NCBI GenBank assembly: GCA_021801525.1
Contig: JAJYXW010000153.1
Coordinates: forward strand, 3,986-67,985
DNA length: 64,000 nucleotides
Reading direction: 5' to 3'
Source of the DNA: Actinomycetes bacterium
GTDB lineage: Bacteria > Actinomycetota > Acidimicrobiia > Acidimicrobiales > JAJYXR01
The notes beneath the pieces were generated by a model. It saw only the letters and a program-made list of their open reading frames with translations. It was not told the origin of the DNA and did not search any database. A program made the translations under genes and the position numbers. The stretch's first letter is position 1. Every line of letters begins with the position of its first letter. Shown in pieces: positions 7,797 through 53,169 of the stretch.

Positions 7797-7916
7797 CCTT
7801 CTCCAGTTCAGCCTTCTCCAGTTCAGCCTTCTCCAGTTCAGCCTTCTCCAGTTCAGCCTTCTCCAGTTCAGCCTTCTCCAGTTCAGCCTTCTCCAGTTCA
7901 GCCTTCTCCAGTCTGG
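7797..7916. repeat. 15-bp tandem repeat CCTTCTCCAGTTCAG x8 (7 perfect, 1 degenerate)
   Basis: Read directly. Lies between the LplA-like gene and the mraZ promoter region. Confidence 0.95.
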
Positions 7917-7975: not shown

Positions 7976-8027
7976 TTGACTGGTGGTGCATTGGGGAATA
8001 GAGTGGCAGAAAGTGGTGTATTGGGGA
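7976..8027 (+). promoter_or_regulatory. Candidate dcw promoter (TTGACT-N17-TAGAGT) overlapped by GTGG/TGGGG direct repeats (possible MraZ boxes)
   Basis: TTGACT at 7976-7981 and TAGAGT at 7999-8004. GTGGTG(C/T)ATTGGGGA occurs at 7983-7997 and 8013-8027. AGTGG occurs at 8002 and 8012, about 10 bp apart. About 40 nt upstream of the mraZ start. Confidence 0.4.
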
Positions 8028-8066
8028 GGGTCCGGGTGACCGCGTCCAGCGGTAGGAAAGCGAGCA

Positions 8067-8489
8067 GTGGTGGCAGGTTTCTACGGCACCTACGAGCACA
8101 CGCTGGACGACAAGGGGCGTGTGATCCTGCCCGCGAAGATGCGCCACGGCTTCGACGGAAAGGCCTTCCTCACTCAATACCTGGATGGATGCCTGGCTCT
8201 GTGGGATCCAGAAGCGTTCGACGAGCAGATGGAGGCGATGCGTCAGCGCGCCTCGACTGGCCGCTCGGAGCGCAACCTCGCGCGCGTCTGGGCATCGAAG
8301 TCGCACGAGGTGGAGGTGGCCAGCAACGGCCGAGTTGCGATACCGGCACATCTGCGGGAGTACGCGGGCCTCGAAGGGGACGTGCTCATAACGGGCTTCT
8401 TCGACCATGTGGAGCTCTGGAACCCTGCCCGCTGGGAGGAGAAGGTGCAGCCCGAGGAGCTGCGCCTGACGGAAGGTCTGGACGGATGA
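8067..8489 (+). CDS. mraZ: Division/cell wall cluster transcriptional regulator MraZ
   Basis: GFYGTYEHTLDDKGRVILPAKMR and NGRVAIPAHLR, the duplicated SpoVT/AbrB-like MraZ motifs. Confidence 0.95.
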   Translation: MVAGFYGTYEHTLDDKGRVILPAKMRHGFDGKAFLTQYLDGCLALWDPEAFDEQMEAMRQRASTGRSERNLARVWASKSHEVEVASNGRVAIPAHLREYAGLEGDVLITGFFDHVELWNPARWEEKVQPEELRLTEGLDG

Positions 8490-9607
8490 TCGCCGTCGAG
8501 TGCTCGCACGTCGAGCGAGCCAGCAGCGAGCCGGGCAGCGGGAGCAGGGAGCTGCCCGATAGCCAGCAGCAGGGTATGGCTGGGGGAGCGGGCCAGGCAG
8601 GCGGCTCCCCGGGCTTCGTTCACGAACCTGTCATGCTCGCGGAGGTCGCAGCGTTGCTGTCGGAAGTGCCCGCCGGGATCGTGGTCGACGCGACCGTAGG
8701 GGGCGGAGGGCACGCGCGCGCCATCCTGGAATCTCGTCCTGACGTCGGCGTGTTGGGAATAGACCGTGATCCGAGCGCGCTCAGCGCGGCCAGGTCGCGC
8801 CTTGCTCCATTCGGGACACGGGCTCTCGTCGTGCACGGAGAGCTCGCGGACCTCGAGGATATTGTCGGCGCGGCCACCTCGGCGGCCGGGCCGCTTGCCT
8901 CGTACCCGGGGGTGTCGGGCGTCCTCTTCGATCTCGGAGTCAGCTCTGAGCAGATCGACCGGGCCGAGAGGGGATTCTCATACTCCAAGGCCGGGCCCCT
9001 CGACATGCGCATGGACCCGACAAGGGGCAGGACAGCTGCGAGCGTGGTGAACGAGCTCTCCGAGGACGAGCTTGCATCTCTGTTCGCGGCCAACGGCGAA
9101 GGCCGCAACGCCCGGCGCCTTGCGCGTGCCGTTGTCGCGGCGCGGCCGCTAACGGGCACCGGGCAGCTTGCGGCGCTGATAGCGGGTGCGCTCGGGGGAG
9201 CGGGTGCCAGGCGCGGCGGGCACCCGGCGAAGCGGGTCTTCCAGGCGGTTCGCATCGAGGTGAACGGCGAGCTGGAGCAGCTCCAAGCGGGCCTCGAGCA
9301 GGCGATCGGGCTACTCCAACCTGGTGGCAGGCTCGTCTGCATCTCCTACCACTCGGGCGAAGACCGCTTGGTGAAGGCGGCTATGGCTACGGCTGCCACC
9401 GGAGGATGCACATGCCCGCCGAAGCTCCCGTGCGGCTGCGGCGCCGTTCCCGTGGGCCGCCTTGTGTTCAAGGGAGCGAAGAAGTCCCGGCCGGCAGAGG
9501 TGGAGGACAACCCACGTTCCAAGAGCGCCCGCCTGCGTTGCTTGGAGCGCCTGGCGATCGACCAGGGCACGCAGGCTAGGCCGGGTACGCAGAGTAGGCG
9601 GAGCTGA
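8486..9607 (+). CDS. rsmH: 16S rRNA (cytosine1402-N4)-methyltransferase RsmH
   Basis: HEPVMLAEV, DATVGGGGHA, GIDRDP, DLGVSSEQID and SYHSGEDR motifs. ATGA overlap with the mraZ stop. ATG at 8576 is an alternative start. Confidence 0.9.
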   Translation: MIAVECSHVERASSEPGSGSRELPDSQQQGMAGGAGQAGGSPGFVHEPVMLAEVAALLSEVPAGIVVDATVGGGGHARAILESRPDVGVLGIDRDPSALSAARSRLAPFGTRALVVHGELADLEDIVGAATSAAGPLASYPGVSGVLFDLGVSSEQIDRAERGFSYSKAGPLDMRMDPTRGRTAASVVNELSEDELASLFAANGEGRNARRLARAVVAARPLTGTGQLAALIAGALGGAGARRGGHPAKRVFQAVRIEVNGELEQLQAGLEQAIGLLQPGGRLVCISYHSGEDRLVKAAMATAATGGCTCPPKLPCGCGAVPVGRLVFKGAKKSRPAEVEDNPRSKSARLRCLERLAIDQGTQARPGTQSRRS

Positions 9608-9610
9608 CCG

Positions 9611-10045
9611 GTGGCCGCGGGCAACGCCCCTGCTCCCCGCCGGAGGGAGGAGTACAGCCGGCCTGACGTATCGCGCTCCACTGGGCGAGCGCCCGAGCTC
9701 CGGGCGCTCGAGGCTCCGGGTTCCAGGCGCAGGGCTCGCCGGACCATGACCCTGCTCGTGGGTATAGCGCTCCTGCTCGGCAGCCTGCTTGCAGTGGGGG
9801 CGGCGCGTGCGTACCTCGTCGAGGGGCAGGTCCGCCTGGCTCGCCTCGACTCCCAGTTAGCGAACGCGACGAGGCGCGAGCAACAACTCCAGCTCGAAGT
9901 CGCGGGACTCGACAACCCATCGCGGATCTTGTCGGTTGCCGAGGCCAACGGCATGGTCCAACCGGCGAAGGTCCAGGACGTTCCCCAGGTGCCGCTCGGC
10001 TACCGCGCGCCGCCGGATGCCAAGCACGGGCGGCACACTAGATGA
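9611..10045 (+). CDS. ftsL: Cell division protein FtsL-like (single-pass, coiled-coil)
   Basis: Position between rsmH and ftsI. One TM helix (LLVGIALLLGSLLAVGAA) followed by a heptad-like region and NPSRI. Confidence 0.7.
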   Translation: MAAGNAPAPRRREEYSRPDVSRSTGRAPELRALEAPGSRRRARRTMTLLVGIALLLGSLLAVGAARAYLVEGQVRLARLDSQLANATRREQQLQLEVAGLDNPSRILSVAEANGMVQPAKVQDVPQVPLGYRAPPDAKHGRHTR

Positions 10046-10120
10046 GCGGGCCCACTAGATGAGCGGGCCCACTAGATGAGCGGGCCCACTAGATGAGCGG
10101 GCCCACTAGATGAGCGGGCA
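10036..10120 (+). repeat. 17-bp tandem repeat CACTAGATGAGCGGGCC x5 spanning the ftsL stop and the ftsI start
   Basis: Units at 10036, 10053, 10070, 10087 and 10104. Each unit contains TAG, ATG and TGA. Confidence 0.95.
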
Positions 10121-12059
10121 GAGTAGGGGGGGCGCAGGCGTTTCCCGCTCCCGCACGGCCGCGGGGCATCGCCTCGCGGCGATGCGGGTGGTGGTGGTCG
10201 CCGCCTTCTTGGCCCTCGGTATCCGGCTAGTCATGGTGCAGGCGCTCTCTGCAAGTCGCTACAGCGCGTTCGGGAGCGCGGAGGTCACCAGCGACGTGAC
10301 GGTTCCGGCTCTCCGGGGAGGGATCTACGACCGCAGCGGCCGCCCCCTCGCCATGTCGGTCGCGTTGAGCAACGTGGTTGCGGATCCGCTCATCATCCAT
10401 GATCCCGCGGCGGAGGCTGCGAAGCTCGCTCCGGTGCTAGGGGACAGCGAGGCAACGCTGCAGGCACAGCTCTCCGAGCATTCTGGATACGTCGTGATCG
10501 CCCACCTCGTCGACAACACGGTATCGAGCAAAGTCGCGGCGCTCGCACTGCCCGGGATCAACCTGCTGGCGGCCAGCGAGCGTGTCGATCCCGCCGGGTC
10601 TATCGCCGCGCCGGTCGTAGGGGCGGTCGGATCCCAGGGAACCGGCTTGGCAGGGCTCGAGTACCAGTACAATGCCCTTCTGTCGGGCAAGCCGGGGAGC
10701 GAGCAGGTCCAGATGGCGCCAGGAGGTATCCCCCTGCCAGGTGGCACCCGTGTATCGCGCCCGGCCGTGCCGGGCAGCGGCCTAGAGCTCACTATCGACG
10801 AGCCGCTCCAGTACGTGACAGATCAGGCCCTCGGGGCCGAGCTGCTTGCGTCCCATGCAGCCAGTGGCACGGCAGTCGTGATGGACACCCACACCGGAGC
10901 CATCCTCGCCATGGCGAACCTCGTGGTGAACCAGAAGACGAGATCGGTGCAGGAGGCTCCGTCCAACCTCGCAGTCACCCAGGTCTACGAGCCGGGTTCG
11001 GTGTTCAAGATCGTCACCTTCTCCGCCTCCCTCCAAGACGGCATCATCACCCCGTCCACCATGTTCACCATCCCTCCGTACCTCATGCTCGGCGGATGGC
11101 GGTTCCACGACGCGTGGTCGCATGGCACCATCCATCTCCCGGCCATCCAGGTGCTGGCCCAATCCTCCAACATCGGCACGATCGAGATCGCGGAAGCGCT
11201 CGGCAAGCAGCGTCTTGCCAGGCAGATCGCCGCCATGGGCTTCGGGCTGCCTACGGGCCTGCACTTCCCGGGCGCGTCGCCCGGGATCGTGAACCCAGTG
11301 GCGAACTGGTCGGTGTCCGCCATCGGCTCCACCCCCATTGGCCAGGACACCGGCGTCACCGCACTGCAGGTAGTGGACGCCATGAACACGGTGGCTGACG
11401 GCGGAGTGTTCGTGCCACCGCACCTCGTGAGGGCAATCATCCCCCCCGGGGGCCAGCCGCGCCCCGTTGCACGCCCGCGGACGCGGCGGGTCTTCTCCCA
11501 GGCAACTGCTTCCGAGCTCACGCGAATGCTGGAGCAGGTGGTGATCGACGGTACGGGTGTGAAGGCGCCGATACCCGGGTACTCGGTGGCCGGCAAGACC
11601 GGGACCGCCAACATACCCAACGGGCACGGGGGCTACGAGGCCAACGGTTACATGGCCACCTTCACCGGCTTCGCTCCCGCGGAGCACCCGGCTCTGAGCG
11701 CAGTGGTCGCAATCGACCACGGGTGGCCTCCATATGGCGGCTCGATTGCCGCTCCGGTGTTCTCCGAGGTCATGCGCTACGCGCTCCACCACTACGGCGT
11801 CCCCACCTCGCCGGGCGGCGGCATCACCGGTGGCAAGACGCGCCTCGTCCCATTCGGCCTCGAGATAACAGCGCCCACTTACCCGGGGTATACGACCTCC
11901 ACGGGCGCCGGGACCTCCACGGGCGCCGGGACCTCCACGGGATACACGGCCTCCGAAGGTGTGGCGGCGTCAGCCGGCCCATCGGGTCGGCGGAGCCCTG
12001 CCGCCGGTCGGGCTAGCATCGCGTCCTCGGCTGGGTACGTTTCCAAGAAGAGACGATGA
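10110..12059 (+). CDS. ftsI: Peptidoglycan D,D-transpeptidase FtsI (class B PBP)
   Basis: SxxK (GSVFK), SxN (SSN) and KTG(T) (GKTGTA) active-site motifs. N-terminal TM helix. The 3' end holds an 18-bp x2.7 repeat at 11895-11942 (TSTGAG). Confidence 0.9.
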   Translation: MSGQSRGGAGVSRSRTAAGHRLAAMRVVVVAAFLALGIRLVMVQALSASRYSAFGSAEVTSDVTVPALRGGIYDRSGRPLAMSVALSNVVADPLIIHDPAAEAAKLAPVLGDSEATLQAQLSEHSGYVVIAHLVDNTVSSKVAALALPGINLLAASERVDPAGSIAAPVVGAVGSQGTGLAGLEYQYNALLSGKPGSEQVQMAPGGIPLPGGTRVSRPAVPGSGLELTIDEPLQYVTDQALGAELLASHAASGTAVVMDTHTGAILAMANLVVNQKTRSVQEAPSNLAVTQVYEPGSVFKIVTFSASLQDGIITPSTMFTIPPYLMLGGWRFHDAWSHGTIHLPAIQVLAQSSNIGTIEIAEALGKQRLARQIAAMGFGLPTGLHFPGASPGIVNPVANWSVSAIGSTPIGQDTGVTALQVVDAMNTVADGGVFVPPHLVRAIIPPGGQPRPVARPRTRRVFSQATASELTRMLEQVVIDGTGVKAPIPGYSVAGKTGTANIPNGHGGYEANGYMATFTGFAPAEHPALSAVVAIDHGWPPYGGSIAAPVFSEVMRYALHHYGVPTSPGGGITGGKTRLVPFGLEITAPTYPGYTTSTGAGTSTGAGTSTGYTASEGVAASAGPSGRRSPAAGRASIASSAGYVSKKRR

Positions 12060-12083
12060 TCCCCCTGCCACGAGCCCGCCGCC

Positions 12084-13514
12084 ATGCACATTGACCACCT
12101 GATCCGCGAAGTCGAGGTCATCGAGGTGGTGGGCGACGCTGCGGCGCTCGAGGTCAAGGCCATTGACTTCGACAGCCGCCAGGTGAGCGAGGGCTCGCTC
12201 TTTTGCTGCCTGCCGGGGGAGCACTCGGACGGGCATGACCATGCAGCCGAGGCGTTGGAGAGAGGCGCGGCTGCGCTACTAGTCGAGCGTCGCCTGGACC
12301 TTCGGGCTCCCCAGGTAGTGGTCGGGCCGGGACAGGCGCGTCCGGCGATGGCACTCGCCGCCTGCGCGTTCTTCGGGCATCCAGCACGATCGCTCGTAAT
12401 GGCCGGGGTAACCGGCACCAACGGCAAGACCACGGTTAGCCACCTCCTCGGCTCCGTGCTGGAGGCCGGGGGGATGCCGGCGGCTGTGGTCGGCACCTTG
12501 GGAGGAGAGAGGACCACGCCGGAAGCACCGGTCCTGCAGTCCATCCTGGCGCGCGCACTCGACCACGAGAAGCGCGCGGCCGTGACGGAGGTGTCATCGC
12601 ACGCGCTGGTCCAGGCGCGAGTCGACGGCTTTCGCTACGACATCGCGCTGTTCACGAACCTGAGCCACGAGCACCTGGACTTCCATGGCACCATGGAGCG
12701 CTACTACGCGGCCAAGGCGACCTTGTTCACCCCAGCGCATGCCGCCAGGGGAGTGGTCGACACGAGGAGCGAATGGGGCCGCAGGCTTGCCGGCGAGGCC
12801 TCCGTCCCTGTCGAGGAAGTCACCGAGCACGACGTCTCTGACGTGCTCCTCAGGCGAGACGGCGCATCGTTCACCTGGCGGGGGCAGCGCGTGGAGATCG
12901 CCCTGCCGGGGGACTTCAACGTCTGGAACGCGGTGCTGGCTGCCGAGGCAGCCGCGAGCCTGGGGGTGGACGAGAGCGACATCGCTGTGGGCCTGGCATC
13001 GGCTGGGTCTCTGGCCGGCCGCTTCGAAGCGGTAGGTCGCGATGCGCCTTTCGCCGCTTACGTCGACTTCGCCCACACTCCCCATGCTCTCGAGGCCACG
13101 CTCGGGAGCGCGCGCAGGATCGCGCGGGACCACCAGGTCATAGTGGTGTTCGGCTGCGGAGGCGAGAGGGACAGGGACAAGCGGCGTCTCATGGGCAAGG
13201 TGGCCGCGGTGGGTGCCGACCTGGTGGTGGTCACGACCGACAATCCCCGTAGCGAGGACCCGGCAGCCATCGCCGAGGAGATCCTCTCTGGGGTGGGAGA
13301 GGGGGCCCGGGTGCTGGTGGAGCTGGATCGAGCCGCTGCAATAGCGGCCGCAGTGGCTAGGGCCGAACCGGGTGACGTGTTAGTGGTGGCCGGCAAGGGC
13401 CACGAGACCACGATCGAGCGGGCCACCTCGAGCGAGCCCTTCGACGACCGCGCCGTGCTCGAGGCAGCTATCCAGCACCGGATGCCGGCCGGTTCCCGGG
13501 CGGTGGCGGGATGA
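12084..13514 (+). CDS. murE: UDP-N-acetylmuramoyl-L-alanyl-D-glutamate--2,6-diaminopimelate ligase
   Basis: GVTGTNGKTT P-loop and the DNPR motif (TTDNPRSEDP) characteristic of meso-DAP-adding MurE. Confidence 0.9.
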   Translation: MHIDHLIREVEVIEVVGDAAALEVKAIDFDSRQVSEGSLFCCLPGEHSDGHDHAAEALERGAAALLVERRLDLRAPQVVVGPGQARPAMALAACAFFGHPARSLVMAGVTGTNGKTTVSHLLGSVLEAGGMPAAVVGTLGGERTTPEAPVLQSILARALDHEKRAAVTEVSSHALVQARVDGFRYDIALFTNLSHEHLDFHGTMERYYAAKATLFTPAHAARGVVDTRSEWGRRLAGEASVPVEEVTEHDVSDVLLRRDGASFTWRGQRVEIALPGDFNVWNAVLAAEAAASLGVDESDIAVGLASAGSLAGRFEAVGRDAPFAAYVDFAHTPHALEATLGSARRIARDHQVIVVFGCGGERDRDKRRLMGKVAAVGADLVVVTTDNPRSEDPAAIAEEILSGVGEGARVLVELDRAAAIAAAVARAEPGDVLVVAGKGHETTIERATSSEPFDDRAVLEAAIQHRMPAGSRAVAG

Positions 13515-15907: not shown

Positions 15908-17307
15908 GCCTGCAGGTGTCGAAGCCCGTGCCGAAGGTCCGCCGTGGCGCCAGCGAGGAGAAGCGCTCGCCGGGTGCTCCTCGCCTGCGAAGCACTCTGG
16001 CCCGGATCAGGAGCGCGATAGAGGCGGTTCCCCTGCCCACGGCGATCTTCGGCGTCGTGACGTGGCTCTGCTGCATCGGTCTCGTCATGGTGCTCGGTGC
16101 CTCGGCGTTCGACTCCTTGATCGTCTACGGCTCTGTCTGGTCCATCTTCGAGCGCGAGGTGCTGTGGCTGGGCCTCGGCTTCCTGGCTCTGCTTGCCGTG
16201 CTCAGGGTCGACACCACGTTCTGGCGGCGGCTTCGCGTGGTGATGATGATCGGTGGGCTGTTGCTGCTCGTCGCGGTGCTGGTGCCCGGTGTCGGGGTGC
16301 GTACAGGGGGCTCTAGCCGGTGGATCGGGTTCGGCCAGTTGAGGGTGCAGCCGTCGGAGCTCATGAAGTTCGCGTTCGCGGTCTTTGCTGCAGACTTGGT
16401 GGCCCGCCGATCGGCAATCGCGAAGGAGGCGCGCCAGGTCGTGGCCCCGGTGCTCGTGCTCCTTGGCGCGGTCTGCCTGCTCGTGCTCGCACAGCCCGAC
16501 ATGGGGACCGCGGTGGTCATCGGATGTATCGGCTTCGGCCTGCTCGTCGCGAGCGGTGTACGCGCCCGCTCGGTGGCCAAGGTGCTCGGCGCTCTGGCTG
16601 TGTTCTCGGGTCTGGCCGCGTTGGCGGAACCCTACCGGCGGGCCAGGTTGCTCTCCTTCGTGAATCCCTTCGCCCACGCGAACGGGTCGGGCTACCAGGT
16701 GGTCCAGTCACTCGTGGGACTTGGCTCGGGGCACCTCACAGGGGTGGGAATAGGTGGCGGACACCAAGTCTGGGGCCTTCTCCCGAACGCACAGACGGAC
16801 TTCATATTCTCGGTCATAGGTGAGCAGGCAGGCTTGCTCGGGACGCTCTTGGTCATTGCCTCCTTCGGCCTGCTCGCGTTCCTCGGCCTGCGCGCGGCCG
16901 CTGGGGCGAGAGATCGCTTCGACTCCTTCCTAGCGGTGGCCGTGACCTGCTGGCTCGTCAGCCAGGCGGTGATCAACGTCGGAGCGGTCATTGGCCTCAT
17001 GCCCGTGACGGGGATCCCGCTGCCGTTCGTGTCGTATGGCGGGTCGGCCATGGTGGTCGACATGGCGGGTGCCGGGCTACTGGTTCGCATAGCGCGCAAC
17101 GGGCTGCACCGGACGGCTCCTGCCCGGCCGGCTCGGACTCGCACGGCTCCTGCCCGGACGGCTCCTGCCCGGACGGCGCCTACCCGCACGGCGCCTACCC
17201 GGACGGCGCCTATCCGCACGGCGCCTACCCGGACGGCGCCTACCCGGACGGCGCCTACCCGGACGGCGCCTACCCGCACGGCTCTTTCCCGGAGATCCGG
17301 CGTATGA
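15904..17307 (+). CDS. ftsW: Peptidoglycan glycosyltransferase FtsW (SEDS family)
   Basis: SEDS motifs [14 protein letters not shown] and [16 protein letters not shown] overlaps with both murD and murG. C-terminal pentapeptide repeat tail. Confidence 0.9.
17113..17292 (+). repeat. 15-bp in-frame tandem repeat (ACGGCGCCTACCCGG-like) x about 12 at the ftsW 3' end
   Basis: Encodes [15 protein letters not shown] pentapeptides repeated about 10-12 times. Confidence 0.9.
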
Positions 17308-18536
17308 GGCGATCGGGCGGTGAGCGGTTCGCTCTGGTTGCAGGCGGGGGCACGGTAGGGCACGCTGCACCGGCGCTTGCCGTGGCTGAGGAGCTAGCCG
17401 CACGAAGGGGATGCGACTCTGTGGAGCTGGTCGGGTCGTACCGTGGCAGCGGAGCGGAGCTGTTTGCAGGATCCGGGCTGCCGGTCACACTCCTGCCAGG
17501 TCGCGGGATCAGGCGAAGCTTCGCTCCGGGAGCCATGGTGGGGAACCTGCTGGCGCTCTGCGGGTTGGCGGTTGGGTTAGCTAGATCCCTGGCGCTGGTC
17601 GCGCTCCGGCGTCCAAGGGTCGTCGTCGCGCTGGGCGGCTTCGGCAGCATCCCCCCAGCGCTGGCAGCCGTCGCGGCTCGGGTGCCGTTGGTGGTGGTGA
17701 ACATCGACGTAGTCCCTGGAGCAGCCAACCGGCTGCTCGCAAGGCTGGCAGCCGCGTGCGCCGTCGCCTGGCCCGGCACTGATCTGCCTCGCGCGAGGGT
17801 GACAGGCGCGCCTCTGCGTCGTGAGATCGCAGATCTCGGCACCGCGCCACCAGGTAGGGCCGCGGCCCGCGAGAAGCTTGGCCTTCCACTCGACAGGCTG
17901 GTGGTGGGGGCGTTCGGCGGCTCACTGGGAGCCAGGCGCCTGAACGAGGCCGTATTGGACCTGGCCAAGCAGTGGGCACTCCGCCAGGACGTCGCGATCT
18001 ACCACGTGACCGGCAAGAGGGACCGCGACTGGGCGGCGGATATGTCCCCGAGGATCGGCGAGGATGGACTCGTCTACATGCAGGTCGCCTACGAGGAGCG
18101 GATGGACCTGCTCTACAGCGCTGTCGACGTCGTAGTCTGCCGGGCCGGCGCAATGACCATGGCGGAGCTGGCGGCGTTGGGCGTTCCGGCTGTGGTGGTG
18201 CCGATCCCGTGGGCGCCGAGGGATCACCAGAGCGCGAATGCCCGCGTCCTAGAGCGCCACGGAGCCGCGTTGGTCCTACCAGACGGCGAGTGCACTGGCG
18301 AGCGCCTGGACGAGCTGCTTGGCGAGATCTTGGCAGGCACCGAGCGCCTGTCGGACATGGCCGGCGCGGCCCGATCTCTGGGCAGGTCAGGAGCGACTTC
18401 GGCGGTGGCGGACCTGGTGGAGGAGGTAGCGCTCGGGAGCCTGGGAGGGGGCCGGAGCCTGCGACGTGGTCGGAGCCTGCGAGGTGGTCGGAGCCTGCGG
18501 AGTCGCCATGCGACTGGGGAGAAGGTGCCGAGGTGA
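17304..18536 (+). CDS. murG: UDP-N-acetylglucosamine--N-acetylmuramyl-(pentapeptide) pyrophosphoryl-undecaprenol GlcNAc transferase
   Basis: [14 protein letters not shown] and [13 protein letters not shown] motifs. dcw position. Confidence 0.9.
18450..18503 (+). repeat. 18-bp in-frame tandem repeat GGTCGGAGCCTGCGAGGT x3 at the murG 3' end
   Basis: Encodes [18 protein letters not shown]. Confidence 0.9.
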
Positions 18537-23355: not shown

Positions 23356-23375
23356 TGGTACAATGAGTCGTACCA
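23356..23375 (+). promoter_or_regulatory. Palindromic operator candidate TGGTAC-N8-GTACCA overlapping an extended -10 (TGgTACAAT)
   Basis: The two GTAC cores are 12 bp apart centre to centre. TACAAT lies at 23359-23364, 32 nt upstream of the yefM GTG. Confidence 0.45.
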
Positions 23376-23395
23376 ACGTTGAAGGAAGGGCAGCC

Positions 23396-23644
23396 GTGAC
23401 CGTCACCGCCAGCGAGGCCCGCAAGAACCTGTTCCCGCTCATCGAGCAAGTCAACGACGACCGCCAGCCGATCGAAATCACCTCTCGCCGGGGCGACGCC
23501 GTGTTGGTGTCGCGGGCCGACTGGGAAGCGCTGAACGAGACGGCCATGCTGCTAAGGGTGCCTGCCAACGCCCAGTGGTTGCTGGAGAGCCTGGCAGAGG
23601 CCCGCGCCGGGGTACTAGAAGAGCACACCCTCGATCGGAGCTAG
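23396..23644 (+). CDS. yefM: Type II antitoxin, Phd/YefM family
   Basis: VTASEARKNLFPLIEQVNDDRQPIEITSRRGDAVLVSRADWEALNETAMLL. GTG at 23396 is preceded by GGAAGG. The track start at 23363 lies inside the operator palindrome. Confidence 0.85.
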   Translation: MTVTASEARKNLFPLIEQVNDDRQPIEITSRRGDAVLVSRADWEALNETAMLLRVPANAQWLLESLAEARAGVLEEHTLDRS

Positions 23645-23905
23645 GTGCGCCTAGTTTTCACCCCTCGCGGGTGGAAGGACTACGTCTGGTGGCAGGCGAA
23701 TGACCGGGCCACGCTGAAGCGGATCAATCGGCTGGTCGACGAAGCTCTGCGCGATCCGACGGCAGGCATTGGAAAGCCGGAACCGTTGCGCCACGTGCTC
23801 TCCGGATGCTGGTCACGGCGCATTGACGAGGAGCACCGGCTTGTGTATCTCGTTGACGGCGAGGACTTGATCGTCCTGCAGGCCCGTTACCACTACGAGG
23901 CCTAG
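23645..23905 (+). CDS. yoeB: Type II toxin, Txe/YoeB family mRNA interferase
   Basis: FTPRGWKDYVWW...LKRINRLV...GIGKPEPL...WSRRIDEEHRLVY...RYHY. The start abuts the yefM stop. Confidence 0.88.
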   Translation: MRLVFTPRGWKDYVWWQANDRATLKRINRLVDEALRDPTAGIGKPEPLRHVLSGCWSRRIDEEHRLVYLVDGEDLIVLQARYHYEA

Positions 23906-23919
23906 AACGCCGAGCGACG

Positions 23920-24849
23920 ATGATCCAAAGCACGGAAGCCCCACTACTTACCGGGCAGCACCGCCTGGCGCCATCCTGGAGAGCGTGTGCTAGCTGCCTG
24001 GTCCCGCTATGTTCATCAGACATGCTGGGTTCATCGGGCATGCTGGCTTCATCGGACCCGGAAGGCCCTTTCGCCAGGCTCGTCGAGCTTCCGGGCACTC
24101 CAGTGACGGCTTGCTTCACCACGCGCCTTGCAGGCGATCTGCGAGACGCCGCAGGCGCCTGGTGGCGGGATGTCCTCGGAGACCTGCTAACCGGAGCCGA
24201 GGGAACCCATCCAGTGGGTCCGTCTTGTCCGGGGCGTGTCGTTCTTGCCCAGCAGGTTCACGGCGCGGGAGTAGCAGTAGTGGGGCCGGGGGATCACGAG
24301 GCCGTTGCCACCCCGGCGTCGGGTGCCGATGCCGGGGTGGCGGAGTCCCTAACACCTGGAGCGGGTGTGGCAGCCGAGGCTGATGCCCTCGTGTCGGGCG
24401 AGGCCGGAACGTGCCTGGGAGTGCTCAGCGCGGACTGCGTTCCGATTGCGCTCGGGTCCCCAGAGGGCATGTTCGCAGCAGTTCACGCCGGCTGGCGGGG
24501 GTTGGCGGCTGGCGTCGTCGAAAGTGCGGTGACCGTCCTCAGGTCGATGGGCGCGACACGCGTGGCCGGCGCTGCCGGCGCTTGCATCGGGCCGTGCTGC
24601 TACGAGTTCTCGCCCGGCGATCTGGACGTCGCGCTGCGCGCGATCGGTGGCACGGCGAGATCGTTCACGCGTGGCGGGCGAGCGGCGCTCGACTTGCGCG
24701 CGGGGGTGCGCGAGGCATGTGCGCGTAGCGGCGTGGATCTCGTGTGGCAGTCGGATGCCTGTACTGCGTGTGGAGAGGGATGGTACTCGTACAGGGCCAG
24801 AGGCGACGAAGGGCGCCAGGGTGTTCTCGTCTGGCGCAGCGGCGCGTGA
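23920..24849 (+). CDS. pgeF: Peptidoglycan editing factor PgeF / YfiH (laccase-domain, DUF152) protein
   Basis: ADCVPIAL, HAGWRG and GPCCYEF motifs. Start uncertain: the N-terminus contains an 18-bp x2 repeat at 24021-24056. Confidence 0.8.
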   Translation: MIQSTEAPLLTGQHRLAPSWRACASCLVPLCSSDMLGSSGMLASSDPEGPFARLVELPGTPVTACFTTRLAGDLRDAAGAWWRDVLGDLLTGAEGTHPVGPSCPGRVVLAQQVHGAGVAVVGPGDHEAVATPASGADAGVAESLTPGAGVAAEADALVSGEAGTCLGVLSADCVPIALGSPEGMFAAVHAGWRGLAAGVVESAVTVLRSMGATRVAGAAGACIGPCCYEFSPGDLDVALRAIGGTARSFTRGGRAALDLRAGVREACARSGVDLVWQSDACTACGEGWYSYRARGDEGRQGVLVWRSGA

Positions 24850-24912
24850 GTGGGACAGCGCCAGCGGCGCGTGAGTGGGACAGCGCCAGCGGCGCGTGAG
24901 TGGGACAGCGCT
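24841..24912 (+). repeat. 25-bp tandem repeat GGCGCGTGAGTGGGACAGCGCCAGC x2.9 at the pgeF/yggS junction
   Basis: Units at 24841, 24866 and 24891 (partial). The first unit carries the pgeF TGA stop. Confidence 0.9.
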
Positions 24913-25629
24913 GTGAACGGGGAGGAGCTCTCGGCAGCCGGCCCGGGTAGGAGCCTGGAGCGCCAGGTTGCCGAGCGGCTCGGCGTGCTTCGTGAGCGTA
25001 TTGCGGCCTCGGGCCGCGACCCGGCCTCGGTGAAGGTGGTGGCAGTGACCAAGGGGCTTGGCTCCGATGTGGCCCGTGCCGCGCTCGCGTGCGGTCTGAC
25101 GGACCTCGGCGAGAACTATGCGAGCGAGCTGGCCACCAAGGCAGCGGAGGTGTCATCGTCGGCGTCTCCGGGCGCTCCTGTGCCGCGCTGGCATTTCCTC
25201 GGCAAGATCCACCGCCGTGACGCACGCAAGGTGGCAGCCTTCGTGTCGTGCTGGCAGTCGCTCGCATCCCTGCACGAGGCGGAGACGCTGGCTGCGGTGG
25301 CGCCCGGCGCGGACGTGCTGGTGCAAGTCGATGTGGCGGGCCTTCCGGGGCGCAATGGCTGCCGGCCTGGCGAGGTGGGAGGAATCGTGAGAGGCGCGTC
25401 GGGCCTCGGATTGTCGGTGATCGGGCTAATGGCGGTGGGACCGCCAGGAGAGCCTGACGAGGCGCTCCAGGCCTTCGAGTGGCTTGCCGGCATGGCACAC
25501 GAGATGGGGCTCGCGGAGGTCTCGATGGGGATGAGCGAAGATCTCGAGACAGCGCTGCGCGCGGGTGCCACCATGGTCCGAGTGGGCAGGGCGCTGTTCG
25601 GCCCTCGCGTCCAGATGCCCGCACGCTAG
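24913..25629 (+). CDS. yggS: YggS family pyridoxal-phosphate homeostasis protein
   Basis: VKVVAVTKG, HFLGKI, MGMSED and VRVGRALFG motifs. Start uncertain: GTG at 24913, or GTG at 24850 inside the repeat. Confidence 0.8.
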   Translation: MNGEELSAAGPGRSLERQVAERLGVLRERIAASGRDPASVKVVAVTKGLGSDVARAALACGLTDLGENYASELATKAAEVSSSASPGAPVPRWHFLGKIHRRDARKVAAFVSCWQSLASLHEAETLAAVAPGADVLVQVDVAGLPGRNGCRPGEVGGIVRGASGLGLSVIGLMAVGPPGEPDEALQAFEWLAGMAHEMGLAEVSMGMSEDLETALRAGATMVRVGRALFGPRVQMPAR

Positions 25630-31126: not shown

Positions 31127-31750
31127 ATGGTCCCGGCGAACGCACCCGCGAAGAAGGCAGCACCCGCGAAGAAGGCAGCACCAGTGAAGAAGGCAGCACC
31201 AGTGAAGAAGGCAGCGCCAGTGCAGAAGCCGGTGCAGAAGGCAGCACCAGTGAAGAAGGCAGCGCCGGTGAAGAAGGCAGCGCCGGTGCAGAAGCCGGTG
31301 CAGAAGGCAGCATCCTCGAAGAAGGCAGCGCCGGTGAAGAAGGCCGGCGAGCAAGCCGGATCGCCGGGTCCCTACGCGTCTGACAGGCGTTTCCTCGACG
31401 AGCAGAGAGAAGCACTGCTCGAGGAGAGGCGCGAGTACCAGACGCAGGCGGACGACCTTCGCGCAGAGGCTGAGGCATTGGCCATGGAGCGCGAGCCCGG
31501 GGACGTCCAGTTCGACGAGGAATCGGGAGAGGGTGGGACGATAACCGTCGACAGGGAGCGTGACCTCGCGCTCTCCGCTCAGGCTCTCGCAGCCATCGAG
31601 GAGATCGACGCCGCGCTGGCGACGATCGACGACCTGTCCTACGGCTCGTGCGAGCAATGTCACCAGCCGATCCCCAAGGCGCGCCTGAAGGCTCTTCCGT
31701 ACGCGCGCCTCTGTGTGGTCTGCAAGAGCGGGGGGCTGCACCGGCGCTGA
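31127..31750 (+). CDS. TraR/DksA family C4 zinc-finger protein with an N-terminal Lys/Ala/Pro-rich repeat tail
   Basis: C-terminal CEQCHQPIPKARLKALPYARLCVVCK (CxxC-N17-CxxC) after a coiled-coil region. N-terminus is (A/V)KKAAP repeats (DNA 31143-31345). Confidence 0.8.
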   Translation: MVPANAPAKKAAPAKKAAPVKKAAPVKKAAPVQKPVQKAAPVKKAAPVKKAAPVQKPVQKAASSKKAAPVKKAGEQAGSPGPYASDRRFLDEQREALLEERREYQTQADDLRAEAEALAMEREPGDVQFDEESGEGGTITVDRERDLALSAQALAAIEEIDAALATIDDLSYGSCEQCHQPIPKARLKALPYARLCVVCKSGGLHRR

Positions 31751-35546: not shown

Positions 35547-35573
35547 GGTTCGATGCTATATGCACCCGAGGAG

Positions 35574-35658
35574 CACCAGGTCGGCACGCGCACCAGGTCG
35601 GCACGCGTCCCGGCACGACCCGCCTCCCGGCACGACCCGCCTCCCGGCACGACACGCC
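35574..35658. repeat. Two adjacent 17-bp tandem arrays: CACCAGGTCGGCACGCG x2, then TCCCGGCACGACCCGCC x3
   Basis: Read directly. Both share a CGGCACG core. Located in the divergent Rrf2 / AlkP-family intergenic region. Confidence 0.9.
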
Positions 35659-35683
35659 TCCGCACATGCTCTAATGTCCTCTG

Positions 35684-51545: not shown

Positions 51546-52943
51546 ATGTGGCCGGGGGCGTGGCCGGGTGGCCCGCCTAGGCTCTCGCGCCGGTCGCTCC
51601 TCCAAGCTGGCGCTGTCGCTGGCGGGGGGCTTGCCCTGGGTGCTTGCAGCTCGGGTCCGAGCGGGCGAACCGGGCTGGCGAAGCCGGCGGCACGGGCCAG
51701 GAACGTTCTGCCAGCGGGGACGCTGCCCCATCCGCACCTCCCCGAGGGTACTGACACGATCCCGGAGATCGACCACATCATGGTGGTCATGCTCGAGAAC
51801 CACTCCTTCGACAACATCCTCGGAATGCTCGGGCGAGGCGACGGCTTCACGCTCGGCTCGAACGGTGCGCCTACGGCTACCAATCCGAACGGCCGGGGCC
51901 AGCTCGTCCGGGCGTTCCACATGCCCACCCCCTGCCAGCTCCACGGCAAACCCTCCCAGTCGTGGAACGCGAGCCATGTCCAGTACGACCACGGGACCAA
52001 CGAAGGCTTCGTGGTCTCCAAGAGCGGGCCCGTCGCCATGGGCTACTGGACGCCACCCGACATGCCCTTCACCAACGGGCTCGCCAAGGTCTTCCCAATA
52101 GGGGACCGCTACTTCTGCTCAGTGCTCGGCCAGACCTTCCCGAACCGCAGGTACCTGATAGCGGGCACCTCGATCGGCATGGTCGACGACACCACACCGT
52201 CCGGGCTCCCACCCGCCGGGACGATCTTCGATTTGTTGAACCGCCACGGGATCCCTTGGCGCGACTACTACTCGAGCCTGCCCACGGCAGGCGTGTTCCT
52301 CCCGCTGCTCGGGCGCAAGGACATTGCGCCGAACCTGGTGCACATCAACCAGCTCTACGCGGACGCGGCGAGCGGGAACTTGCCGGCCTTCGCGATCGTC
52401 GACCCGAACTTCGGGACCGAGTCCGAGGAGGACCCCCAGGATATCCAATACGGCGATGTCTTCCTCGCCAAGGTGATGGGTGCTTTGATGTCCGGCCCCG
52501 CGTGGCCGAGCACGCTCGTCGTATGGAATTACGACGAGCACGGTGGTTATTACGATCACGTCCCGCCGCCGGCAGCGCCGGCTCCAGACGGCATCCCGCC
52601 TGCCATCAAGGTGCCGCCCGACCAGCCGGGCGGGTTCGACCGCTATGGGTTCAGGGTGCCCTTCGGGGTCGTGTCCCCGTACGCGAGGAAGGGCTACGTC
52701 TCCCACGTGGTCCACGACCACACCTCGGTGCTCAAACTGGTCGAGACGAAGTGGAACCTGCCCGCTCTCACTCGCCGCGACGCGAACGCCTCGGACTTGC
52801 TCGACAGCATCGACCTCGCCTCCCCGCCCGCCTTCTTGCACCCACCGACATTGCCTGCCCCAGCCAACCCTGCGCTCGAGGCGTCGTGCGAGCAGGCAGG
52901 GCCGGGGCTCATCCCGCCGCCGGCTGCAGTGGTGAGGGCCTGA
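51546..52943 (+). CDS. Phosphoesterase family protein (PF04185-type; phospholipase C/acid phosphatase AcpA-like), Tat signal
   Basis: LSRRSLLQAGAVAGGGLALGAC signal and IDHIMVVMLENHSFDNILG core. GTG at 51489 is an alternative start. Confidence 0.82.
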   Translation: MWPGAWPGGPPRLSRRSLLQAGAVAGGGLALGACSSGPSGRTGLAKPAARARNVLPAGTLPHPHLPEGTDTIPEIDHIMVVMLENHSFDNILGMLGRGDGFTLGSNGAPTATNPNGRGQLVRAFHMPTPCQLHGKPSQSWNASHVQYDHGTNEGFVVSKSGPVAMGYWTPPDMPFTNGLAKVFPIGDRYFCSVLGQTFPNRRYLIAGTSIGMVDDTTPSGLPPAGTIFDLLNRHGIPWRDYYSSLPTAGVFLPLLGRKDIAPNLVHINQLYADAASGNLPAFAIVDPNFGTESEEDPQDIQYGDVFLAKVMGALMSGPAWPSTLVVWNYDEHGGYYDHVPPPAAPAPDGIPPAIKVPPDQPGGFDRYGFRVPFGVVSPYARKGYVSHVVHDHTSVLKLVETKWNLPALTRRDANASDLLDSIDLASPPAFLHPPTLPAPANPALEASCEQAGPGLIPPPAAVVRA

Positions 52944-52945
52944 GG

Positions 52946-52975
52946 CTCCAGACAGCTCCAGACAGCTCCAGACAG
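52946..52975. repeat. 10-bp tandem repeat CTCCAGACAG x3
   Basis: Starts 3 nt after the stop of the first phosphoesterase gene. Confidence 0.9.
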
Positions 52976-53169
52976 CTTTGGACCCGTGGCCGTGCTTTCC
53001 TGCATCCTTGCACGCGGTCATATCAGGACGTAGAGTGGTGAGGACCACAGCTGATGCTGAGAGAAACGCCAGTTGTGGTACTGGTGGGACCATTCCAAGG
53101 CAGCGGCCCCGCGTAGAAGTACTGCAACGGGAGCATCGGCACGGCAGGAAGTGAAGGGGGGAGCGGGTC

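Follow-up and report, generated by a model that had tools for sequence, protein, structure and literature searches.

Between the divisome genes ftsL and ftsI of an uncultured Acidimicrobiales bacterium from acid-mine habitats lies a tandem array of five 17-nucleotide (nt) units, which links the stop codon of the first gene to the start codon of the second through a ladder of overlapping mini open reading frames (mini-ORFs) and which differs in copy number among near-identical strains. The array was found in a stretch of 64,000 nt from contig JAJYXW010000153.1, referred to below as the window; the GC content of the window is 68.6%, and coordinates are positions in it unless another sequence is named. 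The copy-number variation, the ftsI start and the geometry of the ladder are established. The account that we favor, and hold to be probable though by no means secure, is that the array is a young variable-number tandem repeat (VNTR) made by slippage and tolerated because its copies regenerate an overlap that is competent for translational coupling, with serial hand-over of ribosomes from unit to unit being probable.

A polymorphic 17-nt array at the ftsL/ftsI junction

The array occupies positions 10036 to 10120 of the forward strand. Its 16-mer, CACTAGATGAGCGGGC, is present in five perfect copies, at 10036, 10053, 10070, 10087 and 10104, and has no further occurrence in the window when both strands are scanned. 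A linker C separates the units, and the base after unit 5 is A (10120). Tandem Repeats Finder (TRF) called the array at 10032-10119, with a period of 17, 5.2 copies and 98% matches. A run of five perfect copies in tandem lies far outside what chance would produce. Every unit holds TAG-ATG-A, in which one stop codon abuts the ATG and another overlaps it. The 3' end of ftsL reads ACT AGA TGA; its stop codon (TGA, 10043-10045) falls within unit 1 and is overlapped, as ATGA, by the ATG at 10042. From this ATG and from those at 10059, 10076 and 10093, the same six codons and stop are read (ATG AGC GGG CCC ACT AGA TGA, or MSGPTR*). Read from the sequence, the four mini-ORFs span 10042-10062, 10059-10079, 10076-10096 and 10093-10113 of the forward strand. 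The first overlaps the ftsL stop with its ATG and the ATG of the second with its TGA, and the TGA of the fourth (10111-10113) overlaps the ftsI ATG at 10110. At every rung the mini-ORF stop and the following start form ATGA, which gives a same-strand 4-nt stop/start overlap, as in a coupled gene pair, at all five sites (10042, 10059, 10076, 10093 and 10110), and the five ATGs fall successively in frames 0, 2, 1, 0 and 2. This ladder had been described in the original prediction, which was made from the letters of the window alone, and all of its sequence statements proved exact when the 16-mer positions, ORFs and frames were checked. We could also confirm the six further ATGA/GTGA junctions that it had listed (mraZ/rsmH, murE/mraY, murD/ftsW, ftsW/murG, murG/murC and murC/murB). 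A scan of the window against Rfam returned no family. A role of the unit as a repeated protein-binding site or a small RNA was considered and dropped, as there was no strand-specific signal, no Rfam match and no conservation beyond the species.

The number of units (n) was determined in other assemblies of the same junction. Five units are present in the window and in the assemblies ERZ27237009 (L055), GCA_023378355.1 (L057) and GCA_028065315.1 (L059), and three in GCA_054609735.1 (L058). Two units are found in L001/L002, in GCA_027414595.1 (L054), in three further NCBI metagenome-assembled genomes (MAGs; L049, L051 and L052) and in three ENA assemblies (L050, L053 and L056). A single unit was found in a Logan contig of runs X13/X14, which joins position 10035 straight to 10104. 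This contig was accepted because 31-mers that span flank, unit and flank cannot come from multi-copy reads; it has two mismatches in 10104-10154, whose bases could not be read. Over 3-6 kb, the strains differ from the window by 2-29 single-nucleotide polymorphisms, and the flanks are at least 99.5% identical. All insertions and deletions among them are gains or losses of repeat units, either in the junction array or in an 18-nt repeat that lies in frame close to the 3' end of ftsI. With head-to-tail copies (five units, 98-100% identical, period 17) and with copy numbers of 1, 2, 3 and 5 among near-identical strains, the array is a true VNTR, and an ordinary one by both of the tests that define the class. 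The variation between strains that had been predicted is therefore borne out. The sequences of FtsL and FtsI are independent of copy number. The proteins stay constant at any n because the ftsL stop remains in unit 1 and the ftsI start in the last unit.

Variation was also visible in unassembled data. Logan contigs, which are built with k = 31, end within the array in 19 runs (mine drainage, tailings and sediment), and repeat-internal 31-mers stand at 1.3- to 3-fold the depth of the flanks. The mean copy number per sample, estimated from k-mer depth in eight runs, was 2.3-4.3. Some units are variant, as shown by additional short unitigs in X4, X5, X6, X11 and X15 that are not readable base by base. 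The break of the k = 31 contigs is the one observation that speaks for an artefact of assembly or sequencing, an explanation that we find hardly credible. The array measures 85 nt, which is less than a read length and less than the k of 141 with which the ENA and NCBI contigs were built; identical arrays occur in independent projects, and the excess depth of the repeat-internal 31-mers recurs throughout the 19 runs. Since the array was seen again in independent assemblies and runs, we conclude that it is not an artefact.

The ftsI start codon and the ancestral junction

The upstream gene, ftsL (9746-10045, forward strand), encodes 99 amino acids from the ATG at 9746, which is the form given by gene callers, and its frame is open from a GTG at 9611. 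The predicted protein has a single transmembrane helix followed by a coiled-coil-like region. It matches the profiles NCBIfam FtsL_Actino (E = 2.9e-8) and TIGR02209 (E = 1e-6), both under the curated cut-offs, and gives a weak match to Pfam DivIC. We assigned it as ftsL because of these sub-cut-off matches to FtsL models together with the rsmH-ftsL-ftsI synteny. The downstream gene, ftsI (10110-12059, forward strand), begins within the last unit and encodes 649 amino acids (MSGQSRGG...) with penicillin-binding protein dimerisation and transpeptidase domains. Both PF03717 and PF00905 occur in its homologues, the best matches being Acidimicrobiales MAG proteins.

Judged from sequence, the ATG at 10110 is the best-supported ftsI start. 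A TAG stands directly before it in the ftsI frame, and ftsI therefore cannot extend upstream. Later in-frame candidates are the ATG at 10182 and GTG codons at 10188-10194. In FtsI homologues, a basic juxtamembrane motif, (R)RRLGV(I/M)R, is conserved just upstream of the equivalent of ATG 10182; the version in the window is HRLAAMR, and ATG 10110 is the sole in-frame start upstream of it. We placed the start at 10110, the fifth ATG of the array as the original prediction had proposed, because this motif is conserved and because relatives start at the overlapped codon (see below). It is very improbable that FtsI begins downstream, at ATG 10182 or GTG 10188-10194, with the array lying in an untranslated spacer between ftsL and ftsI. 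Many database gene calls of homologues do open at the equivalent MRVVVV methionine. However, many homologues have I at the position where the FtsI of the window has M, and since these still carry the upstream RRLGV(I/M)R motif, we regard the short MRVVVV calls as truncations. In addition, relatives keep the frame open from the overlapped start and have a similar N-terminal peptide, and ATG 10182 is preceded by no Shine-Dalgarno (SD)-like sequence (-5.0 kcal/mol).

The junction was then compared among outgroup lineages, three of four of which keep an NTGA overlap between ftsL and ftsI. In L003 (72% FtsI identity), ftsL ends in ...GGATGA and ftsI starts from the overlapped ATG (MTARGRGG..., compared with MSGQSRGG... 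in the window). The junction reads TTGA-GCGG in L077 (62% FtsI identity; protein LSGRARR...) and GTGA-GCGG, in frame with FtsI, in L080 (61%; VSGHPAG...). Because relatives at 61-72% FtsI identity hold one overlap at this junction, a single NTGA-GCGG overlap is, on these sequences, the ancestral state, and the array is derived in the present species. A scan of GTDB species representatives yielded one close relative (L007, at about 72-73%) and no representative of the present species. Among JGI metagenome contigs, an exact search with the left flank and one unit had 0 matches, and a follow-up search of that collection by FtsI gave distant relatives only (at most 36% identity).

Both ends of ftsI carry other repeats. 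The 5' end is a repeat hotspot across the clade: the N-terminal cytoplasmic tail of FtsI contains in-frame 15-nt units in L003 (positions 1520-1590 of that sequence), and the N-terminal tail in L004/L007 contains an in-frame 9-nt (RTG)n repeat (L004 2895-2975, L007 5935-6015). At the 3' end of the window's ftsI, the in-frame 18-nt repeat at 11894-11941 encodes (TSTGAG)n in the C-terminal tail. L001, which has two units at the junction, has one (TSTGAG) unit fewer, and its FtsI is 643 rather than 649 amino acids long.

Probable origin of the array and proposed translation across it

The array would have begun with a 17-nt segment that held the ancestral overlap of ftsL stop and ftsI start (NTGA-GCGG) and was duplicated by strand slippage. 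Each added copy would then bring one more 6-codon mini-ORF, which overlaps the previous TGA and the next ATG. The ladder is no evidence of design; in sequence terms, it is the automatic product of one period class, because the duplicated segment contains ATGA and 17 equals 2 modulo 3. Whatever the period, the first copy should keep the upstream stop and the last copy the downstream start. For a period of 2 modulo 3, each ATG would be in frame with the TGA of the next unit, which would generate the ladder. A period divisible by 3 would place the ATGs in one frame and give the downstream protein an N-terminal extension, and with a period of 1 modulo 3 a mini-ORF would, at some n, pass the real start in the wrong frame. 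The array is probably located at a junction because only there, in an operon of overlapping genes, does a 17-nt repeat break no frame.

This origin fits a genome that is rich in tandem repeats. Counting with TRF (score at least 50, period at least 7), we found 29 tandem repeats in the window, or 4.5 per 10 kb, 13 of them at least 95% identical; the density was about 1.3 per 10 kb in other high-GC loci and 3.6 in the 72% relative. Repeats whose period is divisible by 3 sit inside genes, and those with other periods (10, 17, 22 and 25) all lie outside ORF bodies. A second junction repeat is located 15 kb from the ftsL/ftsI array, at 24837-24911 (25 nt x 3, perfect), between a pgeF/YfiH-like ORF (Cu-oxidase_4; 23920-24849) and a YggS-like ORF (Ala_racemase_N; 24913-25629). 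Here the TGA stop of the pgeF-like ORF lies in unit 1, and the GTG at 24846 (GTGA) opens a 17-codon ORF that ends at a TGA (24897-24899) overlapping the GTG at 24896. The latter opens the 6-codon VSGTAL*, whose TGA overlaps the GTG at 24913, the called start of the yggS-like gene. This repeat is polymorphic as well (loci L067-L076): most strains have three copies, the third of which carries a C>G change, and GCA_027335075.1 (L072) has two copies, with the overlapped GTG in frame with yggS.

On the favored account, ribosomes that end ftsL would restart at the overlapping ATG, make MSGPTR, terminate and restart again. FtsI would be made after n termination-reinitiation steps, probably with some de novo initiation in addition, and its yield would fall as n rises. 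Work with reporters in E. coli and Haloferax has shown that coupling by termination-reinitiation needs an overlap or a very short gap; coupling drops by 80-100% with a gap of 38 nt and suffers severely from one of about 20 nt, and the final 15 nt of the upstream ORF suffice for it (PMC10666635). The distance that post-termination ribosomes can travel is still disputed (PMC10666635, PMC12548453), and it has been proposed for mycobacterial interspersed repetitive units (MIRUs) that short ORFs can bring ribosomes to the coupled gene (PMC12548453). At n = 2, the ftsL stop is separated from the ftsI start by 13 nt, at n = 3 by 30 nt and at n = 5 by 64 nt. Little direct coupling should remain at n = 3 and above, and a relay would therefore be needed for coupling to persist. 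Hand-over through the mini-ORFs is a plausible way for coupling to survive. As regards the iterated relay put forward in the original prediction, its geometry, its ftsI start and its copy variation hold up, and the relay itself is plausible from the arrangement of these parts.

With an assumed anti-SD sequence, ACCUCCUUU, the predicted SD-like duplex at the ftsI ATG reaches -4.6 kcal/mol. The background median of the window is -3.4 kcal/mol, and ftsW, murB, ftsQ and ftsZ have values of -10 to -12 kcal/mol; under that assumption, these figures support the earlier statement that no SD sequence precedes this ATG. A scan for sigma-70 promoters and terminators found nothing between rsmH and ftsI, either within or beside the array. 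The sole promoter-like match of the sigma-70 scan lies at 7976-8004, upstream of mraZ. An internal promoter is thus an unsupported reading of the array, as no sigma-70-like site was found there in a scan that covers sigma-70 promoters only. Metatranscriptomes of the same mine-drainage study gave 0 contigs on 8000-12100. When constructs with n = 1-5 were folded in silico, the ftsI AUG was about equally buried at every n (mean unpaired probability 0.28-0.42), and a helix between the 3' GUUCCCC of ftsL (about 9981-9988) and the run of seven G residues after the ftsI AUG was predicted throughout n = 1-5 (z = -3.0). Since folding did not tell the n = 1-5 alleles apart, it was left out as evidence.

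Several observations weigh against this account and have to be set beside it. The single-copy allele comes from one sample only, X13 and X14 being apparently the same data. The linker is C (at 10052, for example), whereas both flank equivalents (10035 and 10120) have A; in no register, therefore, can exact duplication of 17 nt from the one-copy sequence account for the array, which calls for one substitution or for another base in the ancestor. In the fourth outgroup lineage, L004/L007 (73% FtsI identity), the overlap has been lost and the junction reads TAG, 6 nt, GTG, which weighs against a strict need for a relay. Within the same operon, murE has no SD-like sequence (-2.2 kcal/mol) and follows a 24-nt gap; de novo initiation independent of an SD sequence therefore evidently works here and could serve ftsI as well. 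Finally, the predicted helix would allow coupling through unfolding of the mRNA, independently of n. The last three of these points, together with the SD-poor, non-overlapping start of murD, can be combined into an alternative in which the array is translationally inert: FtsI would be made by de novo initiation at 10110, or ribosomes on ftsL would open the helix whatever the copy number, and the mini-ORFs would go unused. We regard this as unlikely, though not far-fetched. The ftsI start lacks an SD sequence and lies in predicted structure, and the NTGA overlap is conserved in the three outgroup lineages described above. Moreover, because the internal ATGs share the context of the ftsI ATG, any mode of initiation at 10110 should load the mini-ORFs too, from which ribosomes would be fed forward. 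The helix itself is a prediction only, in a region of 69% GC with palindromic GGGCCC repeats and no covariation support.

A different alternative grants the relay and makes it adaptive, in line with the suggestion of the original prediction that the array could attenuate FtsI relative to FtsL and that slippage could tune their ratio. The array would be a rheostat or contingency locus, in which the number of units determines the FtsI:FtsL ratio by way of iterated reinitiation. Selection would keep the hypermutable array because it gives the population variation in divisome stoichiometry that is heritable yet reversible. Copy number does differ both among near-identical strains and within samples, and conservation of the overlap in relatives suggests that coupling matters. 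Multi-copy alleles are also common in at least four studies and several habitats, and they are for that reason not strongly deleterious. However, dozens of repeats in the same 64 kb behave alike, including the variable in-frame repeats in the tails of FtsI, FtsW and MurG, so that mutation pressure alone explains the variability. The ladder is automatic for a 17-nt period, and ftsI is normally essential, unlike typical contingency genes. We consider a selected rheostat improbable; as far as the sequences go, support for adaptive tuning would be limited to tolerance of the alleles. In a wider form of the idea, junction repeats in general would be heritable translational rheostats that set FtsI:FtsL strain by strain and also act at pgeF/yggS, with only chain-preserving periods admitted. 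We hold this form to be doubtful as well; if true, it would be a general and so far undescribed route to tunable operon coupling. In the slippage account that we favor, the VNTR would instead be a by-product of a genome prone to repeats and would be tolerated, with selection sparing those geometries that are compatible with coupling; it would not be a dedicated regulatory device.

The alleles are of use under any of these readings. They form a natural series (n = 1, 2, 3 and 5, with flanks otherwise identical) of iterated overlaps that link two divisome genes, and direct cloning of this series would make the efficiency of each termination-reinitiation step, relay by very short ORFs and ribosome travel distance measurable. 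The junction also illustrates how a repeat-prone genome can fit a repeat whose period is not a multiple of 3 into a gap-free operon with neither gene broken. For annotation, arrays should be expected at gene junctions and the last start codon called. If the copies are neutral, the array is a useful marker for strain typing.

Further repeats were noted elsewhere in the window. Two lie in frame at the 3' ends of genes in the same cluster: a 15-nt x 12 repeat at 17109-17293, which encodes (RTAPT)n at the C-terminus of FtsW, and an 18-nt x 3.6 repeat at 18436-18499, which encodes (GRSLR)n at the C-terminus of MurG. A perfect 15-nt x 7.7 array (CCTTCTCCAGTTCAG) at 7797-7912 is situated 155 nt upstream of mraZ and about 60 nt upstream of the lone sigma-70-like match at 7976-8004; L001 ends inside it. 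Two adjoining 17-nt arrays at 35573-35661 occupy a divergent intergenic region (35555-35675), and a perfect 10-nt x 3.3 array at 52945-52977 begins 2 nt past a stop codon at 52943. The ORF at 31127-31750 has an N-terminal (P/A)(A/V)KKAA region with nested 18-, 48- and 66-nt repeats and a C-terminus resembling a DksA/TraR-type C4 zinc finger (CEQC...CVVC). Between ftsZ and the pgeF-like gene, positions 23363-23905 hold a YefM/YoeB-type antitoxin-toxin pair (PhdYeFM_antitox, YoeB_toxin).

Comparison with known systems

The original prediction knew of no described precedent for such a relay, and in this it was wrong. In the Mycobacterium tuberculosis complex, MIRU arrays lie between senX3 and regX3; strain H37Rv has three 77-bp units and CDC1551 two 77-bp units and one of 53 bp (PMC4213456). 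The MIRU ORF is described as coupled to the neighboring gene at a spacing of -4 nt, and this coupling is proposed to let the element reside there with little effect on expression (PMC12548453, citing Supply et al. 1997). Both systems consist of head-to-tail repeats between co-oriented genes of an operon, which is a putative one in the case of our array, with a copy number that varies among strains. The ORFs of successive MIRU units reportedly also overlap stop to start. Like a MIRU as defined in PMC12548453, the unit of our array contains a short ORF that overlaps the flanking stop and start codons. The differences are of size, distribution and origin. MIRUs are 40-100 bp long, dispersed and regarded as mobile insertions, whereas the array unit is 17 nt long and confined to a single locus in the 64-kb window, with a 31-mer depth that is explained by one array. 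The array unit is a duplicated junction, with a frame shift per unit and ORFs of six codons. The MIRU spacer has promoter activity (PMC4213456), and no promoter-like site was found in the array by the sigma-70 scan. MIRUs occur in Mycobacterium (M. tuberculosis complex and M. leprae), and the host of the array belongs to another order of Actinobacteria, the Acidimicrobiales, from mine-drainage metagenomes. By analogy, then, the array is one that appears to work like a MIRU array, yet it stands outside the MIRU family. In the literature that we searched, mostly without subscription journals, the MIRU case was the only ladder of short repeats at a stop/start junction, and there was no bacterial experiment on serial reinitiation through such short ORFs.

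Other systems share single features with the array. Contingency loci, known from Haemophilus, Neisseria and others, usually have units of 1-9 nt, switch genes on and off by frameshift or promoter spacing, and typically drive surface or restriction genes. The array resembles them as a hypermutable repeat near a start codon whose copy number varies within populations, but it leaves both frames intact at every n, and its gene encodes a normally essential divisome enzyme. In the upstream open reading frames of GCN4, translation of a short ORF likewise governs access to a downstream start, and calicivirus gene overlaps have the same -4 or -1 spacing (PMC12548453) as the array. Both depend on other mechanisms and factors, and neither is built from a strain-variable tandem repeat. 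In canonical ATGA coupling, the geometry is that of each single rung, and it is used once at the six other junctions of the dcw cluster and at ftsL/ftsI in the relatives; the array has the overlap five times in series, with non-functional 6-codon ORFs between. The array is thus new relative to MIRUs but of a sort of system that has already been described, and its main value lies in the allelic series that it offers for the study of serial reinitiation.

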